Assembly (NCBI GenBank): GCA_963779225.1
Contig: CAVZWW010000001.1
Coordinates: forward strand, 542,921 to 606,920
Direction of reading: 5' to 3'
From: an uncultured Bacteroidota bacterium
Lineage (GTDB): Bacteria; Bacteroidota; Ignavibacteria; UBA10030; UBA6906
Length of the DNA stretch: 64,000 bases
A program made the position numbers and the translations under genes. Within the stretch, counting starts at the first letter, position 1. Each line of letters starts with the position of its first letter. This document shows, in pieces, positions 32,745 through 46,762 of this stretch. Below the pieces are notes generated by a model, which saw only the letters and a program-made list of their open reading frames with translations, did not search any database and had not been told where the DNA came from.

Positions 32745-35700
32745 GTTGCCACTCCTCGACGGCCCGGCGGTTCTCCATCTGCCAGTTGTTCCTGCTGTGC
32801 GCGATGCACCTCCTCCTGCCCTCTGCGTACTCCCAGCCCCGGCTTCTCGACGACTTTGAGACCCTGACCGGCTGGAAAGAAATCGTCTCCGAAGGGGCCA
32901 AACTGCATCTGATACAGGCAGGGGGGACCGCGGGCCGTTCGATGGGTATGGTCTTCGATCTGAGGGGGGTGTCCGGATACGTTATTGCGCAGAAGGAGTT
33001 TACGCTCGATCTCCCCACGAACTACCAGTTCACGTTTGACATGCGAGCGGAAGCTCCCGTCAACAACTTCGAATTCAAGTTGATCGACGATCAGGAAAAC
33101 GTGTTCTGGATCAAAAAGATGAGTTTCACCTACCCCGGCGAGTGGACGCGGCAACGTATCAAGAAACGGCATCTGACGTTCGCGTGGGGTCCCACCCGCG
33201 GCGGCGAAATCCGCAAGGTGCGCAAGATCGAGTTCGTCGTGTCGGTCAGCACGGGCGGAGCGGGCACGGTCTATCTGGACAATTTCCGTTTTGAACCGAT
33301 CGATGAACATGCGGGAAAAACCGCACGTGCCGAAGTTGAGGGTTCTTCAAATGCGTCCGGCCGGCTCCCCTCGATAGACGCCCAGGCCTCACTCCTCTCC
33401 GATTGGCACAGCTCAGGCGGACGCGAGCAAGAATGGCTGATCGTACGGTTCCACCAGCTCAAGGAAGTGGGGGGACTGGTGATTGATTGGGACAGCGTCG
33501 ATTTTGCCACGCATTATCAGGTCCTTCTTTCGGATGACAGCGTCGCATGGACAAGAGCGTACGCCGTGACAAACGGGAACGGAGGACGGGACTATGTCCC
33601 ATTGACGGAAGGGGAGGGGCGGTTTCTGAAACTCCTTCTTTTAAAGAGCGGAGGAAACCGAAGATTCGGAATCCGCCGGATGACCTTCAAACCCCCACAA
33701 TTCTCCGGATCACCGAACGAGTTCTTTCGTGCAGTGGCCGCGGATGCACCAGCGGGTCACTTTCCAAAGTTCTTTCAGAACCAGCAGTCGTACTGGACCG
33801 TCATCGGGGTGAACGGCGATAGCCAGGAAGCGCTGATGAACGAACAGGGGCAGATTGAAGTGGACAAACTCCTCTTCTCGTTGGAGCCTTTTCTGTACGT
33901 TGACAATCACCTGGTGACCTGGAATGATGTTGCGACAAGCCCGGCCCTTCTGGACGGCTATCTGCCGATTCCCTCGGTGACCTGGCGCTATAAGGACGAA
34001 TGGGTGCTCACGATCGAGGCGGTTGCCGGAGGCGTGGCGGGGAATTCGCTCCTGGGTATCCGGTATACCGTGCACCGGCTGAAGTCCGGAGATCCTGCAA
34101 AGCTGTTTGTTGCAGTGTGCCCCTTCCAGGTGAATCCCCCATGGCAGTTCCTGAATGTCGAAGGCGGGGCGACACGGATAGAAAGCATCGCGTACCATGA
34201 AGGATTTGTGCGCGTGGATGGCCGGGAGATCATCCCGATGACCCCGCCCTCACGCTTCGGGGCGGCGGAATTCGATCAGGGACATATTACGGAGTATCTG
34301 GCGCAGGGGACTGTTCCGCCGGAGCAAAATATCCATGATCATACGGGCTACGCCTCTGCTGCACTGGAATACGATCTGTCTCTGTCGGCGGGCGAAGTGA
34401 AGGAAATCTGCCTTGCTGTACCGTTCCACGGATGGCATGGAAGCCCTACACCCAACATGCAACAGTACGGCGACCGGATCTACTTCAACATGATGCTTTC
34501 ACAGACGGTGAATTTCTGGCGCGGCAAACTGGACAGGATCCGGATCACGCTCCCCCCATCCGCCCAGGATGTGGTGAATACGTTGAAGTCCAACCTCGCA
34601 TATATTCTCATCAACCGCGATGGTCCGGGCATACAGCCGGGCTCGCGCAACTATGAGCGTTCCTGGATACGCGACGGGTCACTGACCTGCTCGGCTCTGT
34701 TGCGCACGGGGAACATGGCCGAGGTGCGGGAATTTATCGACTGGTATGCAAAGGGGCAGTTCCCGAACGGCAAAATCCCGTGTGTCATTGATGCACGGGG
34801 GCCTGATGCGGTACCTGAACACGATAGCCATGGGGAATTCATCTATGCGGTGCTGCAGTACTTCCTGTTTACGAAAGACACCCTCTGGCTCCGCGGTAAG
34901 TTTGATAATATTGTGAAGACCGTCCGGTACATCCAGGCTTTGCGTGCAGAACGGAAGACGGATCTCTACAAAAGCGGCACACCACAGCAGCGGGCATTGT
35001 ACGGACTGCTGCCTGAATCGATCAGTCACGAAGGGTACTCGGATGTTCCCCGTCACTCGTACTGGGATGACTTTTTCGCCCTGCGCGGCCTCAAGGATGC
35101 CACCACCATCGCCCGGGTCCTTCGAGAAAAGGAATATGCGGCGGAGTTCGCCACTGAGCGGGACGATTTCCGCAAGGATCTGTACGCTTCCATGCGTCTG
35201 GCCATGAAGAACACCGGGGTAGACTACATACCCGGTTGCGCGGAGCTGGGAGATTTTGATGCCACATCCACAACCATCGGCGTGGTGCCCGGGGGAGAAC
35301 TCGGAAATATCCCCGAACCGCAGCTGCACAATACGTTTGACAGGTATTATCGCTATTTTGTCGGGAGGAAGACGAAAGAAGACGTCGTGAACTACACCCC
35401 CTATGAAACGCGTGTGATCGGGACGTTTGTCCATCTTGGTCAAAAACAGCGTGCGGAGGAAGCCCTTGCCTTCTTCATGAACGATCGGCGTCCGCCGGCC
35501 TGGAATCACTGGGCCGAAGTCGTCTGGCGCGATCCGTTGACCCCGAAATTCATCGGCGACATGCCGCACACATGGGTGGGATCCGATTTCATGCGGTCGG
35601 TGTTCAGCATGTTCATCTACGAAAGGGCACGGGATAGTGCTGTGGTTCTCGGGGCGGGGATCCCCGACCGGTGGGTGAATGATCCGGCCGGCGTGACCGT

Positions 35701-41743: not shown

Positions 41744-43315
41744 CTAGTTGAAATGTTTCATGCCACTCCATAGTTCAGGTAACGGCCTCCGGAGTCCACG
41801 GCAGAGGAAGATCTTCAGGTTGTTCTCATAAGGCATGCAGTAAGGGCTTGACACCGACCCGATGATCTCTACCTGCGCAAAGCGCTCCTGTTTGTCCCGC
41901 AGTTCCCCTCCCAGAATCAACATGAGATCGCCTGTATACTCCCGCGGACCCCAGATCCAGTAGTTATTGTGTTTGCCTATGGACTTCGGAAGTCCGTAGT
42001 GCCTTCCGTAGTAATCCAGCGCTCCACAGCGGCCGTAGTTGTCTGCGAAGACGGCACAGCGGACCCTTTCCTCCGGTGTGAGCCGGTGGAACGCGGCCGC
42101 GACGGCAGCCGCCTTTTCCGGCCAACCGTGCATGTCGGCGTAAAACTGCGGAAGTTTTTCGAGCGTCTTTCCTTCGGGGGTGCCCGGACTGATTCCGAGC
42201 CTTCCGGTGTACGATATGTATCCTTCCACCGGAAGAATGGGAAGGGCAAGCGGTGCGAGTGCCGACCCGGATACGAGGAGCAGGCCTGCGTAGACCGGAC
42301 GGAACCAGCGCCGTGTGCGTTTTAGCGTGAAGCGTTCAAACAGCGTCGCTCCTGCGGCAAAGAGCACCGGATAGGCGGGCGCCAGATACTCCGCCTTGCT
42401 GTGCTGATTGACAAGAAGAATTGCCACCACCGCGAGATAGGCAATCCCCAGTGTGCGAAAGCTTTTTGCATGGGAGGAAAACAGAAGAAACAGGAGACCC
42501 GAGAACCAGAGCGGAAAAGTGACGGGATTGTTGATACCGAATTGTCCTGTAAGAAATGTCAGTGCCGATAGACCGGAGTACTTGCCTGCCGTGGCGTTTC
42601 TGATGAACTCCACATGCGCAAAGTCGTGCGAGATGTTCCAGAGAATGAAGGGCATAAAGAGCAGAACGATGAGCGTGCCTGCGACATAGGGCCAGCGGGT
42701 GAGGAACCAGGTCCGGAAGTGCGTGAGTGCAAAGCCGGCTGTGAGGCCCGCCGCATACCAGAGGATGCTGATCTTATTCAATGCCCCCAGGCCGAGGACG
42801 AGCCCGAGTCCGAGCCAGTAGCGGGGATCCTCGGTTTTCAAAAGGCGGATTGTGAGGTAGGCCGAAAGTGACCAGAAAAGCAGGTCGATGGCGTTCATCG
42901 AATATATCGAAGAGACGGCGAGGAAAACCGGGGAGACAATCGCGCAGAGCGCGGCCAGCACCTGAGCGACACGCCCCCCGCCGAGTTCCCTTGCCATCAC
43001 GCCAGTGATGAATACAACAGCCGCACCGGCGAAAGCGGGGAGAAGCCGGATGGCGAAAAGGGAGTCTCCGAAGAGCAGGCGGCTGACGGCGAGAAGATAG
43101 ATAGAGAGGGGGGGCTGATCGACGTAGCCGAGGTCCAGATGATCCGCGCACGCGAGGTAGTAGAGTTCGTCCCGGAAGATCCCGTAACCGCCGAGAGCGT
43201 TTGTTGCGAGGTGGATAAGGAGTTTTGCCAGCGCAAGCGAGAGAAGAATAGCGGTGTTTCCGGAAACCACAGAACGCCAGGAAAATGGTGAAGCAGGCTC
43301 TACCGTAGCCCTCAT
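41744..43315 (-). CDS. GT39/GT83-family membrane glycosyltransferase (PMT/ArnT-like, lipid-linked sugar donor dependent)
   Basis: 523 aa, polytopic; N-terminal region LALAKLLIHLATNALGGYGIFRDELYYLACADHLDLGYVDQPPLSIYLLAVS with the DE motif in loop 1, typical of ArnT/PMT. Confidence 0.65.
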   Translation of the reverse strand: MRATVEPASPFSWRSVVSGNTAILLSLALAKLLIHLATNALGGYGIFRDELYYLACADHLDLGYVDQPPLSIYLLAVSRLLFGDSLFAIRLLPAFAGAAVVFITGVMARELGGGRVAQVLAALCAIVSPVFLAVSSIYSMNAIDLLFWSLSAYLTIRLLKTEDPRYWLGLGLVLGLGALNKISILWYAAGLTAGFALTHFRTWFLTRWPYVAGTLIVLLFMPFILWNISHDFAHVEFIRNATAGKYSGLSALTFLTGQFGINNPVTFPLWFSGLLFLLFSSHAKSFRTLGIAYLAVVAILLVNQHSKAEYLAPAYPVLFAAGATLFERFTLKRTRRWFRPVYAGLLLVSGSALAPLALPILPVEGYISYTGRLGISPGTPEGKTLEKLPQFYADMHGWPEKAAAVAAAFHRLTPEERVRCAVFADNYGRCGALDYYGRHYGLPKSIGKHNNYWIWGPREYTGDLMLILGGELRDKQERFAQVEIIGSVSSPYCMPYENNLKIFLCRGLRRPLPELWSGMKHFN

Positions 43316-43442
43316 CCGTTCCTCCCGATTTACTGGATACGCAGAGCACTATGCGGAACAGGCTGACGGGGGCTCAGATCCGCCCTTGCCTATGATATAC
43401 GATTGCCGCGGCGGGGTGTTGCGGGGGGAGGGGGGAGTGGCA

Positions 43443-43472
43443 GGAAAAAGGGGGGATCCGGGAGATCCCCCC
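43443..43472 (-). terminator. Rho-independent terminator of trpB2
   Basis: On the minus strand GGGGGGATCtcccggGATCCCCCC is followed by TTTTT, about 80 nt after the trpB2 stop. Confidence 0.5.
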
Positions 43473-43548
43473 ACAGGGAATTCCGCGTAGCCAGAGCCCG
43501 GTCGAAAACCCTCCGGACCCCGCTCTCTTTAAGAAGGAAAGGAATGTG

Positions 43549-44913
43549 TCAGGCCGCCGGCACGGGGAACTCCTTCAATTCTGCGAGCGATGTACGGATT
43601 TCTTCTGTTGTAAGTTCGATGTTTTCCAGCCGCCCGGCAAAGTACGCGTCGTACGCGCTCATGTCAAAATGGCCGTGCCCGCTCAGGTTGAAGAGAATCA
43701 CGGGTTTTGTCCCCTCCTCACGCGCGCGGCGGGCCTCGTCGATCGCGGCTTTGATTGCATGGGAGGATTCTGGAGCCGGAATAATTCCCTCGGTGCGTGC
43801 GAACAACACACCCGACTCGAAGACTTCGTTCTGCATGTATGACCGGGCCTCAATCAGCCCGCTCAGGAGCAAACGGCTCAGGATGGGCGCCATACCATGG
43901 TAGCGCAGTCCGCCCGCATGGATCGAAGGCGGGATAAAATTGTGGCCGAGGGTATGCATGGCTAGGAGCGGCGTCATCATGGCGGTGTCGCCGAAGTCAT
44001 ACCGGAATTCACCCCGTGTCAGCGTCGGGCACGAGGCGGGCTCGACAGCGATGGAACGGACCTTCTTCCCGTGTATCCGCTCGCGCACGAAGGGAATGGC
44101 AATCCCGCCGAAATTCGATCCGCCCCCCACGCATCCGATCACGATGTCCGGAAATCGGTCGATCTTCTCCATCTGTGTGATACACTCAAGACCGATAATT
44201 GTCTGGTGCAGGAGTACATGATTCAAGACGCTGCCCAGGGAGTAGTTCGTATCGTCACGCCCCGCGGCGTCCTCCACCGCCTCGCTGATCGCCATGCCGA
44301 GGCTCCCGGGAGAATCGGGGTGCAGGGCCAGGACGTTGCGCCCGGCGTTGGTGTCCTGACTTGGACTGGCTACCACCTCGGCGCCCCATGCGCGTATCAT
44401 GGAACGGCGGTATGGTTTCTGATCATAACTCACACGGACCATGTAGACCTTGCATTCCAAACCGAAGAGCCCGCACGCAAAGCTTAACGCACTCCCCCAC
44501 TGGCCGGCCCCTGTTTCGGTTGTCAGACGCTTGATGCCGGCCTGCTTATTGTAATAGGCCTGTGGGATGGCCGTGTTGGGTTTGTGGCTGCCGGCCGGGC
44601 TGACACCTTCGTACTTGTAATAGATCTCCGCGGGCGTGTCCAGCACCCGTTCGAGGTTGAGTGCCCGGATCAACGGCGTCGGACGGTATATGCGGTAGAT
44701 TCGCTGAACTTCCTCAGGGATCGGAATGTATCGCTCGGGGCTCATCTCCTGCTTTATCAACTCCATCGGGAAGATGGCCGACAGGTCAGCGGGGCCGATC
44801 GGCTTTCCGGTGCCGGGGTGAAGGGGGGGCGCAAGCTTATCGGGCATATCAGCCAGAATGTTGTAGTAGGCCGTGGGCATTTCCCGTTCTTCGAGGTAGA
44901 TCTTTTGTTGCAT
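43549..44913 (-). CDS. trpB2: Tryptophan synthase beta-like PLP enzyme, TrpB2 family (stand-alone)
   Basis: [33 protein letters not shown]…[15 protein letters not shown]…[47 protein letters not shown] shows TrpB2-type N-terminal extension and the PLP-lysine region (SHK). SD GGAG 9 nt upstream of ATG. Confidence 0.8.
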
Positions 44914-44950
44914 GTGTCGCTCCGGATGGTTGGACTGTACAGTGACAGAA

Positions 44951-45172
44951 AATGAAAAATCGTGGGTGGATGCGCCCACGATTCTTGTTGAAGAGGCAAC
45001 AAAAAAGGTGGGAACACTCCGAGCGGCGTTCCCACCTTCATGACGTTACAGCAAAGATCAGAGGGGTGGGGACACCGTCGGGCGCCACCACCACCGGTTA
45101 AGCAGCCGAATCGGCAGAGTATGGATCTGTCTCATCATGATGAAGAATAGTGAAGTTGGCGGACATTGTCAA
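44951..45172 (-). promoter_or_regulatory. Ribosome-mediated Trp attenuator: promoter, 26-aa leader peptide with WWW (45058-45138), antiterminator/terminator hairpins
   Basis: Minus strand read directly: TTGACA-17-TATTCT; then ATGATGAGACAGATCCATACTCTGCCGATTCGGCTGCTTAACCGGTGGTGGTGGCGCCCGACGGTGTCCCCACCCCTCTGA encodes MMRQIHTLPIRLLNRWWWRPTVSPPL*. 20 nt later GGTGGGAACgccgctcggagtGTTCCCACC+TTTTTTG is an intrinsic terminator (forward 44995-45036). The leader segment GTGTCCCCACC duplicates the terminator 3' arm and can pair with GGTGGGAAC as an antiterminator; the Trp codons (GGTGG) can pair with it in turn. A second hairpin AATCGTGGGcgcatccaCCCACGATTTTTC sits 30 nt before the trpB2 ATG. Confidence 0.7.
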
Positions 45173-45298
45173 GAAAAAAGGGAAGCGTCCTGTTGCTTCA
45201 ACTGAAAATCAAGTCAATGAGGATTATGTCAAACGCTGACGTTTGCGCATAGGCTTTCCCCGGCGTATATTCATCTAACCCACTTCGAAGGAACACGC

Positions 45299-46762
45299 AT
45301 GAGCCCCCGTCGTCCTGCACATGTTCTCATACCCGCTTTTATGTCGCTGCTGTTCTTCCTCGTTGCCGGTTGCGCATCTCCAGGTGAAGAACAGATCACC
45401 ACGTGGATCAACAACGGAGAATTCGCCAAAGCGGAACGGGCGATCGGGACCATGCTTCAACGCGACACGTCGATGTCCGTCCAGCGGCGGCTCTTCTGGG
45501 AATTCGAAATCGAACGGATGCGCCGGATCAGACTTGATTTCACGAAGACCGAGTCGGATGTTCATGCATTCGTTACCCGGTACATCCCTCAGATGGATCA
45601 TGGCACGTACAGGCGCCTGGAAGAATCCCATGCGCTGGAAGTCATGACCATCGACGGCGAAAAACGGTATTTCCACTCTGCGGCCCGAAACCTGTTTCGT
45701 CTGGATCCCGAAGCCAGGCTGGTCTGGAAGGAAAGGTTCAAGGACGCGCCGCCGGACTCCGGCCTAGCGGGCGAAGAGGGACTCGATGCGCATCTGCGTG
45801 AAGTGATAGAAGCTGCAGTCAAGGGCGGGAAACCGTTCGTGAAACCCGTCCGGCTGCATATCATTCATACCATCGACATCAAACCGGATGCCGTGCCTGA
45901 AGGTGAGACCATCAGGTGCTGGATCCCGTTTCCGAGGGAGATCCCCGGTCGCCAGGAGGTTCTGACCATTCTCACCACGGACCCGCCGCAGTACGTTCTG
46001 GCCGGCAACCCGGTACATCTGCAGCGCACAATCTATTTTGAGAAGCGATCCCTGGGAAGGTCCAAAACACGATTTAGCGTGGAATACGAGTACACTTCAA
46101 AGGGGGTCTTTGTGCCCGTGGATCCTGCAAGGGTAAAACCCGCTGCCATCACTCCGGAGCTCGCCCCCTTTGTGAAAGAAGAGCCGCCGCACATCGTGTT
46201 CACACCCGAACTTAAGGATCTTTCCCGGAAGATCGTGGGAAGCGAGACCAATCCGTACCTGATTGCCCGGCGGCTTTTTGCGTGGGCTGACACCAACGTC
46301 ACATGGGCGACGGCGAGAGAATACTCCACCGTCCCGAATCTCAGTATGTATCCGTTCATCAACCGCCATGGCGACTGCGGCATGCAGACGATGCTGTTCA
46401 TCACGCTCTGCCGTATGAATGGCATCCCCGCCCGCTGGCAGTCGGGGTGGGAGTTCCGTCCGCCGGACAACAGCATGCATGACTGGGGAATGGTCTACTA
46501 TGAGCCTTACGGGTGGGTTCCCATGGATGTCACGTACGGCATGCGGAAGACGGCGGACGACCGGCTCAAGTTCTTCTACCTGAACGGCATGGACAGCTAC
46601 CGGTTGATCTTTAACGATGCCACCTCGACACCTTTCTATCCGGCTAAAATGTTCCCCCGTTCTGAAACGGTGGATTCGCAGCGCGGCGAAGTGGAGTGGC
46701 GGGGAGGAAATCTCTACTTCAACATGTGGGAGTGGGATCTTGAGTGGAAGGTCGTGAGGTGA
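45299..46762 (+). CDS. Transglutaminase-like (Cys-His-Asp) domain lipoprotein
   Basis: Lipobox FFLVAGC; catalytic triad context HGDCGMQTMLFITLCRMNGIPARW … HDWGMVYYEPYGWVPMD. Confidence 0.65.
   Translation: MSPRRPAHVLIPAFMSLLFFLVAGCASPGEEQITTWINNGEFAKAERAIGTMLQRDTSMSVQRRLFWEFEIERMRRIRLDFTKTESDVHAFVTRYIPQMDHGTYRRLEESHALEVMTIDGEKRYFHSAARNLFRLDPEARLVWKERFKDAPPDSGLAGEEGLDAHLREVIEAAVKGGKPFVKPVRLHIIHTIDIKPDAVPEGETIRCWIPFPREIPGRQEVLTILTTDPPQYVLAGNPVHLQRTIYFEKRSLGRSKTRFSVEYEYTSKGVFVPVDPARVKPAAITPELAPFVKEEPPHIVFTPELKDLSRKIVGSETNPYLIARRLFAWADTNVTWATAREYSTVPNLSMYPFINRHGDCGMQTMLFITLCRMNGIPARWQSGWEFRPPDNSMHDWGMVYYEPYGWVPMDVTYGMRKTADDRLKFFYLNGMDSYRLIFNDATSTPFYPAKMFPRSETVDSQRGEVEWRGGNLYFNMWEWDLEWKVVR

Follow-up and report, generated by a model that had tools for sequence, protein, structure and literature searches.

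The element described here lies on the minus strand of a 64,000-nucleotide (nt) stretch of contig CAVZWW010000001.1 (GenBank assembly GCA_963779225.1, positions 542,921 to 606,920), from an uncultured member of the Bacteroidota assigned to the Ignavibacteria; the whole of this stretch is referred to as the window, and coordinates follow its numbering. A promoter, a short open reading frame (ORF) with three successive Trp codons and a chain of alternative hairpins together precede a stand-alone trpB2 gene (43549-44913, minus strand). This leader is likely to be a transcription attenuator that senses charged tRNA-Trp through translation of a leader peptide, controls trpB2 as a monocistronic unit, and may relay its decision to a second checkpoint ahead of the gene.

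The leader and its gene

The promoter found by motif scan (45144-45172, minus strand) is of the sigma-70 type, as originally predicted, with the -35 hexamer TTGACA at 45172-45167, a 17-nt spacer and the -10 hexamer TATTCT at 45149-45144. It is followed by a leader ORF (45058-45138 including the stop, minus strand) of 26 codons and a UGA, encoding the peptide MMRQIHTLPIRLLNRWWWRPTVSPPL, whose characteristic Trp-run portion reads …NRWWWRPTVSPPL. Its three successive UGG codons (UGGUGGUGG, 45085-45093) are the proposed sensing site. The leader AUG stands 5 nt past the -10 hexamer and a second AUG 8 nt past it, so near that space for a Shine-Dalgarno sequence ahead of the leader ORF is wanting; judging from the promoter spacing, the ORF is likely read from a leaderless, or nearly leaderless, mRNA. 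Abutting the -35 hexamer is a weak hairpin (GAAGC…GCUUC, followed by CCCUUUUUU; 45182-45199, minus strand), which could shield the promoter from transcription arriving from upstream or be a T-rich UP-like element; its conservation in one relative, L161, is not obvious.

The leader RNA contains the segments of a classical attenuator. Segment 1 (45081-45095), which overlaps the Trp codons, forms the 1:2 anti-antiterminator with segment 2 (CGGUGUCCCCACCCC, 45063-45077), and segment 2 can instead pair with segment 3 to form the 2:3 antiterminator. Segments 3 (45039-45024) and 4 (45020-45004) form terminator 1 (45004-45039), a stem of 14 pairs followed by six U residues (45006-45001). The terminator and the near-duplicate on which its alternative pairing depends had both been read in the original prediction; the two copies, GUGUCCCCACC (45075-45065) and GUGUUCCCACC in the 3' arm of terminator 1, are identical at 10 of 11 positions. 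The minimum-free-energy fold of the leader RNA combines 1:2, 3:4 and a further hairpin described below (-86.6 kcal/mol, z = -4.5 relative to shuffled sequences). The antiterminator by itself reaches -23.4 kcal/mol, and with segment 4 added 3:4 prevails at -28.9 kcal/mol; the two helices share segment 3 and are mutually exclusive. Segment 2 is separated by 7 nt from the last Trp codon and by 2 nt from the UGA behind it, a geometry in which a ribosome halted at either of the first two UGG codons would leave segment 2 free and one at the stop codon would cover it.

The second terminator-like hairpin (hairpin 2, or terminator 2; 44955-44986, minus strand) consists of segment 5 (AAGAAUCGUGGG), an 8-nt loop (CGCAUCCA) and segment 6 (CCCACGAUUUUU), with 12 pairs followed by five U residues; by itself it folds at -16.2 kcal/mol. 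Its existence had been correctly read, but it had been placed 30 nt before the ATG of trpB2 (at 44913) and ends 41 nt before it. Segment 5 can alternatively enter a long 4:5 hairpin (44968-45020, minus strand), in which GGAGUGUUCCCAC, the U-tract and GUUG pair with CAACAAGAA and UCGUGGGCGCAUCC. When everything beyond segment 3 (45023-44950) is folded, a single 4:5 hairpin results (-23.8 kcal/mol, z = -4.9), in which the U-tract of terminator 1 pairs with an A-rich tract ahead of segment 5, and segment 6 and its own U-tract stay single-stranded.

The downstream gene encodes a TrpB-like pyridoxal-phosphate enzyme of 454 amino acids (Pfam PALP), preceded by the Shine-Dalgarno sequence GGAG (44920-44923), in a region that in relatives is complementary to the CUCC of segment 5. 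The protein scores above the cut-offs of the TrpB2 models NF009057 (742.9; cut-off 366) and TIGR01415 (653.1; cut-off 518.85) and below that of the TrpB1 model TIGR00263 (151.2; cut-off 392.45), and is thus a true TrpB2; the closest solved structures are the TrpB2-type chains 6hul_B, 4qys_B and 6hte_B. An intrinsic terminator of 10 pairs, 7 of them G-C, followed by five U residues, lies 3' of the gene (43450-43472, minus strand), and trpB2 is therefore monocistronic. The gene stands alone in the window and in the relatives examined, which bears out the lone TrpB2 of the original prediction.

Conservation and covariation among relatives

The individual signals are not unusual in a single sequence. 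Within 3 kb, one promoter-like site was found against 1.3 expected from shuffled sequences, and four terminator-like sites against 2.7. The motif TGGTGGTGG occurs seven times in the window (0.76 expected), and the leader copy is the only intergenic one; the other six, at 35100, 37354, 48985, 51682, 53247 and 59189, lie inside long ORFs. The case for more than chance therefore rests on conservation. For this, trpB2 loci were drawn from genome and metagenome collections, together with contigs encoding close homologues, which gave 22 loci (L numbers) with readable upstream DNA and TrpB2 proteins 73-97% identical; the named relatives carry the labels Ignavibacteriales, Ignavibacteriota or Bacteroidota. 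Two further loci were unreadable, L005 ending 81 nt upstream of the gene and L003 having its leader masked with N. In the latter, a run of about 100 N extends from about 270 to 170 nt upstream of trpB2, where the leader ORF and the Trp codons would be expected, and the -35 promoter element and everything from segment 2 onward are intact.

The same layout recurs throughout this set. The -35 hexamer TTGAC[A/T] is kept in 20 of the 22 loci, the 17-nt spacer in 21 and the -10 pattern TAnnnT in all, and every readable relative has, at the same place, an ORF in the Trp frame that starts with ATG and spans 22-31 codons. The Trp run is WWW or WWWW in 19 loci and WWRW, WRWRW or WAWRWPW in the other three, and its GGTGG core is invariant in alignment A2, with flanking columns nearly so. 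The leader stop codon occupies one and the same alignment position in all 22 loci, 2-6 nt past segment 2. As expected for a leader peptide, the N-terminal half drifts while the Trp run and the stop are fixed. The original prediction had named loss of the triple-Trp leader from relatives as evidence that would speak against it; a Trp-rich leader is retained in all of them. The leader AUG lies 5-18 nt beyond the -10 hexamer (median 9-10), which, given the usual start distance, would leave a 5' untranslated region of 0-3 nt in most loci; in contrast to the leader AUG, which has no Shine-Dalgarno sequence, trpB2 always has GGAG(G). More widely, among the 153 trpB2 upstream regions that could be used, 23 have a short ORF with at least three Trp within six residues, as do 2 of the 153 reverse-complemented control sequences.

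Counted over alignment A2 with its 22 sequences, pairing holds in 96.5% of cells for the anti-antiterminator 1:2; in 89.5% for terminator 1 (3:4), with changes on both sides at five pairs; and in 79.7% for the antiterminator 2:3, with such compensatory changes at seven pairs. Examples of the latter are columns 119-180 (GC in 13 sequences, CG in 5 and AU in 2) and 121-178 (CG in 11, UG in 6 and UA in 5). As a control, sliding the 3' partner by 1-3 columns left only 38-56% paired. The covarying part of 2:3 uses bases from the stem top and loop of terminator 1, as a real antiterminator predicts. The U-tract behind 3:4 is present in 20 of the 22 relatives, and the other two have terminator 2 instead. 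In a permutation of mean duplex energies over the 22 sequences, which replaced an earlier count, on 11 sequences, of how often the cognate duplex won over swapped ones, exchanging partners between sequences weakened 1:2, 2:3 and 3:4 so consistently that none of 5000 permutations matched the cognate pairings, and four control pairings were unresponsive (0.10-0.87); since the test ignores shared ancestry, these and the further swapping figures below are indicative and not true probabilities.

The locus thus has a Trp-codon ORF, an intrinsic terminator between this ORF and the gene, an antiterminator that excludes the terminator, and a gene of Trp metabolism downstream. Its conservation argues that the leader is a real, conserved regulatory element, and the 1:2 / 2:3 / 3:4 core, whose logic the original prediction had already proposed, is very probably a ribosome-mediated attenuator.

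The second hairpin and the proposed switch

The block AAUCGUGGGNNC-CUCC (segment 5) is kept in almost every one of the 22 sequences, whether or not a partner lies downstream of it, and the 5:6 hairpin with its U-tract is strong in eight loci (window included), weaker in three and absent in 11. Segment 5 is complementary to segment 4, including the CGGAG conserved in the loop of terminator 1, and for the conservation of this loop there is no other obvious reason than pairing with segment 5. The 4:5 pairing is at least as stable as 5:6 throughout the first set of 11 sequences and more stable in 20 of the 22. It is paired in 88.9% of cells, with changes on both sides at three pairs; in L008 and L006, for instance, column 187 has changed from G to A and column 243, correspondingly, from C to U. 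The corresponding figures for 5:6 are 79.7% and five pairs, one of them in the stem of hairpin 2 at columns 229-251 (UA in eight sequences, CG in seven).

In many loci, some of them without terminator 2, segment 5 forms long duplexes, of up to -20 kcal/mol, with the Shine-Dalgarno sequence of trpB2 and its spacer (hereafter 5:SD), for example GGUACCUCCU:AGGAGGUACC in L162, GAACCUCCG:CGGAGGUUC in L082 and ACUCCAGU:ACUGGAGU in L001. These were judged by duplexes computed for each sequence, column counts having been dropped as the Shine-Dalgarno regions are out of register in the alignment. Partner swapping gave 0.0008 for 4:5, 0.0024 for 5:6 and 0.0028 for 5:SD over the 22 sequences. Two loci, L162 (1233-1503) and L163 (1242-1503), have lost the U-tract behind 3:4 (CUGAGCCG and CGAUCCGG, respectively) and kept a perfect terminator 2. 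Their middle hairpin would in effect be a pure anti-antiterminator, and with 3:4 and terminator 2 both kept, regulation there would therefore run only through the choice between 4:5 and 5:6. Structurally, the leader has the three-hairpin layout of the his type, 1:2, 3:4 and 5:6 against 2:3 and 4:5. Hairpin 2 probably belongs to the same switch rather than forming a separate element, and the comparative evidence somewhat favours a role of 4:5 as a relay to a second checkpoint.

We propose the following sequence of events. Transcription would begin at the leader AUG or a few bases ahead of it, as the promoter spacing suggests. When Trp is ample, the ribosome would pass the three UGG codons to the UGA and cover segment 2, which after release of the ribosome would pair with segment 1; 3:4 would then form and RNA polymerase would halt at the U-tract of terminator 1. 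In transcripts escaping this terminator segment 5 would still be free to form 5:6, and terminator 2 would stop them. When charged tRNA-Trp is scarce, the ribosome would stall on the Trp codons and mask segment 1, so that segment 2 could capture the emerging segment 3; the freed segment 4 and its U-tract would in turn capture the A-rich tract and segment 5. Both terminators would then fail to form, and trpB2 would be transcribed with segment 6 and the ribosome-binding site free. In relatives without terminator 2, segment 5 would pair with the Shine-Dalgarno region of trpB2 in the OFF state. Segment 5 would thus act as a hub that hands the decision from terminator 1 to a second checkpoint, transcriptional or translational, the OFF state consisting of 1:2 and 3:4 followed by 5:6 or 5:SD, and the ON state of 2:3 and 4:5. 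Two terminators in series under one sensor, as in the window, would multiply repression in the OFF state and may demand a sustained stall for expression. A fuller picture can be offered only tentatively, namely a two-checkpoint relay through segment 5 driven by a leader peptide on a leaderless transcript, in which a stall spanning both checkpoints would amount to kinetic proof-reading of Trp starvation, and stand-alone TrpB2 would be a Trp-forming enzyme induced by starvation in several phyla.

Several observations weigh against this proposal. With the Trp codons blocked, the thermodynamic optimum of the window still keeps 3:4, as it does in several relatives, and such a block does not by itself turn 2:3 into the optimum of the window. 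The switch would therefore have to be kinetic and decided during transcription, as in E. coli; we take this as the usual difference between thermodynamic and kinetic folding rather than as an argument against a switch. Initiation at the leader AUG would require a leaderless mRNA or one with a leader of 2-3 nt, which is plausible in this group. No Rfam family matches the leader, RF00513 (Trp_leader) and RF00230 (T-box) remaining unmatched at E values up to 10 in 44800-45350. As to the distal part, 4:5 is backed mainly by conservation, with few compensatory changes, 5:6 is slightly more stable than 4:5 in L164 and L163, and the optimum with 2:3 enforced keeps 5:6, without 4:5, in 4 of 11 sequences (L002, L083, L007 and L004). 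Segments 3 and 5 are moreover alike, as are segments 4 and 6, so that the complementarity of 4 and 5 may in part be a by-product of a duplicated terminator.

The points on the distal part are what a simpler explanation would build on: a plain single-terminator Trp attenuator, in which hairpin 2 is a diverged copy of terminator 1 with an independent role, for example as a pause site, as a stem that stabilises the RNA or as a constitutive back-up terminator. Segments 5 (CGUGGG…) and 6 (CCCACGAUUUUU) do resemble segments 3 (GGUGGG…) and 4 (CCCACCUUUUUU), respectively; the scarcity of two-sided changes in 4:5 and the four folds that retain 5:6 with 2:3 enforced also speak in its favour. Duplication of a terminator would not, however, set the CUCC of the hairpin 2 loop opposite the CGGAG of the terminator 1 loop, nor account for the conservation of segment 5 in the 11 loci that lack hairpin 2 or for the greater stability of 4:5 in 20 of the 22 sequences. 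The pattern in L162 and L163 would be pointless unless 4:5 controls 5:6, and a constitutive terminator right before the sole gene would merely cut its expression. We consider this explanation unlikely.

The second stage could also be purely translational throughout, window included, with segment 5 an anti-Shine-Dalgarno sequence released by segment 4, and hairpin 2 presenting or storing segment 5 without terminating. Duplexes of segment 5 with the Shine-Dalgarno sequence and spacer reach -16 to -20 kcal/mol in L162, L169, L166, L082, L167 and L083, spacer and segment 5 vary together, the optimum folds of the free RNA of L008, L082, L006, L085 and L001 show 5:SD in the OFF state, and the duplex is weakened by partner swapping as given above. 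In the window, however, this duplex is modest (-11.9 kcal/mol) and requires a bulge, and the OFF state locks segment 5 in a 12-pair hairpin with five U residues that has the form of an intrinsic terminator; L007, moreover, has terminator 2 yet lacks the CUCC. As an account of all loci, a purely translational stage thus seems improbable. Far less probable still is a switch in which a protein, free Trp or a tRNA binds the leader RNA and the Trp-rich ORF is incidental. T-boxes do serve trpB2 in other lineages, and the absence of a Shine-Dalgarno sequence at the leader AUG would suit it; yet ATG, in-frame Trp run and fixed stop are kept in all 22 relatives as other codons drift, the unrelated leaders of other phyla have only the Trp run in common, neither a T-box nor any other Rfam match is found at the locus, and alignment A2 leaves no conserved unpaired motif as a possible binding site.

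Stand-alone trpB2 in other lineages and comparison with known attenuators

The leader of the window lies between trpB2 and a divergent transglutaminase-like gene, and a PMT_2 glycosyltransferase gene lies downstream of trpB2. As the transglutaminase-like neighbour is divergent, the possibility that hairpin 2 terminates a convergent gene was rejected. The order transglutaminase-like lipoprotein (divergent), trpB2, PMT_2 (41744-46762 in the window) is kept in several relatives (L001 and L162-L166), with a beta-lactamase-family gene interposed between trpB2 and PMT_2 in L162. In L006 (4379-5942), an Ignavibacteriales metagenome-assembled genome (MAG), trpB2 is followed on the same strand by genes for a chorismate-binding enzyme and a class IV aminotransferase. 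A trp operon headed by trpB2 was considered for this locus and rejected, the two genes being a pabB/pabC-like pair, so that the Trp leader might there act on folate-branch genes too.

Upstream of lone trpB2 genes in several further lineages, Trp-rich leaders of unrelated sequence were found, each with a terminator. An NWWW(W)QI… leader occurs in a lineage whose named member, L034, is labelled Neomarinimicrobiota, and on the metagenome contigs L101, L118 and L142; a WRWWW leader in a Caldithrix MAG (L030); a RWWWRWQPPGRGPS leader in L073 and L027, MAGs labelled Thermodesulfobacteriota and Proteobacteria; and a further unrelated Trp-rich leader ahead of trpB2 in L115. At Rfam gathering score, T-box leaders (RF00230, 99-120 bits) precede trpB2 in L054, L011, L021, L066, L160 and L117; two of these are metagenome contigs without a label, and the labels of the others are Fervidicola, Thermoanaerobacterium, Chloroflexi and Desulfovibrionaceae. 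The T-box sequence motif is present in nine further trpB2 loci. In a Neomarinimicrobiota MAG (L040, 2584-2963; also L141 and L103) a gene of the Trp-repressor family (PF01371, E = 2.5e-22) has a WWIW mini-ORF behind it, and trpB2 comes next. In L040 this 30-codon ORF overlaps the repressor-family gene by ATGA and lies directly upstream of trpB2, ahead of which there is no terminator, only a hairpin beside the Shine-Dalgarno sequence; the arrangement may represent TrpR plus a translational leader.

These unrelated Trp leaders and T-boxes argue that control of the lone trpB2 by Trp or Trp-tRNA arose repeatedly, and hence that its product serves Trp supply. Taken with the leader described here, they indicate that cells switch the gene on specifically when charged tRNA-Trp is low. 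The physiological role of stand-alone TrpB2 (type trpB2_o) continues to be debated. According to Merkl 2007 (PMC1854888), such genes are found outside trp operons, mostly in addition to an operon-encoded trpB1, and may have another function that is as yet unidentified. A Trp-supplying role, as indole salvage or back-up synthase, would fit the predicted regulation better than an unrelated one. The finding overturns nothing, and gives a testable handle on this role. It also extends leader-peptide attenuation to a lineage for which no cases are catalogued, either as an Rfam family or in the searchable literature. The relatives form a natural variant series (terminator 1 alone, both terminators, terminator 2 alone, and sequestration of the ribosome-binding site) that shows how one switch gets rewired, and the leaders offer compact parts for Trp-responsive synthetic control.

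When the whole window was searched against Rfam at gathering score, and the region 44800-45350 at E values up to 10, only the chance-level matches CC3552 (18.6 bits) and bxd_4 were returned, and the leader-type relatives gave no match. The element is analogous, not homologous, to RF00513 (Trp_leader). No description of this leader family, or of leader-peptide attenuators of trpB2, of Ignavibacteria or of Bacteroidetes, was found in the searchable literature. Vitreschak and colleagues are said to have proposed candidate attenuators in some Bacteroidetes/Chlorobi in 2004, and to call such leaders undocumented in the FCB group, as in the original prediction, is probably too strong.

The closest functional parallel is trpL of E. 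coli and Salmonella, whose control responds to charged tRNA-Trp. In both leaders the tandem Trp codons of a short ORF fall within segment 1 and its stop codon sits beside segment 2, and both have the 1:2 / 2:3 / 3:4 alternatives with an intrinsic terminator. The leader of the window differs in having three Trp codons instead of two, in controlling a lone trpB2 instead of trpEDCBA, in an AUG without a Shine-Dalgarno sequence 5-8 nt from the -10 hexamer, and in the added 4:5 / 5:6 stage. For this stage the parallel is the his leader of Salmonella and E. coli, with hairpins A:B, C:D and E:F against B:C and D:E; the 1:2, 3:4 and 5:6 versus 2:3 and 4:5 of the window follow the same logic, and L162 and L163, in which only 5:6 has a U-tract, are formally identical to the his layout. 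A chain of alternative hairpins, three in number, is also found in the ilvBNC attenuator of Corynebacterium glutamicum (PMC11857589). Unlike in his and ilvBNC, 3:4, the middle hairpin, is a complete terminator in its own right in the window and most relatives, giving two terminators in series, and in other relatives a ribosome-binding site takes the place of a terminator as the last element.

A single sensing event likewise acts at two levels in the trp leader of Bacillus subtilis under TRAP, in which, as Du and Babitzke reportedly described in 1998 (cited in PMC4347634), termination is complemented by long-range refolding of read-through transcripts that hides the Shine-Dalgarno sequence of the first gene, trpE. 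The proposed sensor in the window is, by contrast, the translating ribosome, and no GAG/UAG repeats are present. In T-boxes (RF00230) the regulated gene is the same trpB2 and the signal presumably the same uncharged tRNA-Trp, but the T-box RNA senses the tRNA directly, without an ORF.

In Actinobacteria, classical attenuators of trp operons, trpS and leuS have been predicted by comparative genomics (Seliverstov et al. 2005, PMC1262725). They likewise have Trp-codon leader peptides and terminator/antiterminator pairs and can precede single genes such as trpS; they belong to another phylum, their sequences are unrelated to the leader of the window, and the 'trpB2A' of that study is a second trpBA operon of C. 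diphtheriae. According to a preprint (bioRxiv 10.1101/834739), leaderless polycysteine short ORFs of mycobacteria are Cys-responsive attenuators; they share with the window a regulatory short ORF on a leaderless transcript, which in the window is suggested by promoter spacing, and differ in amino acid and phylum. The mechanism proposed here is thus of a known kind, and the leader family is new, its second stage being distinctive and its start probably leaderless.

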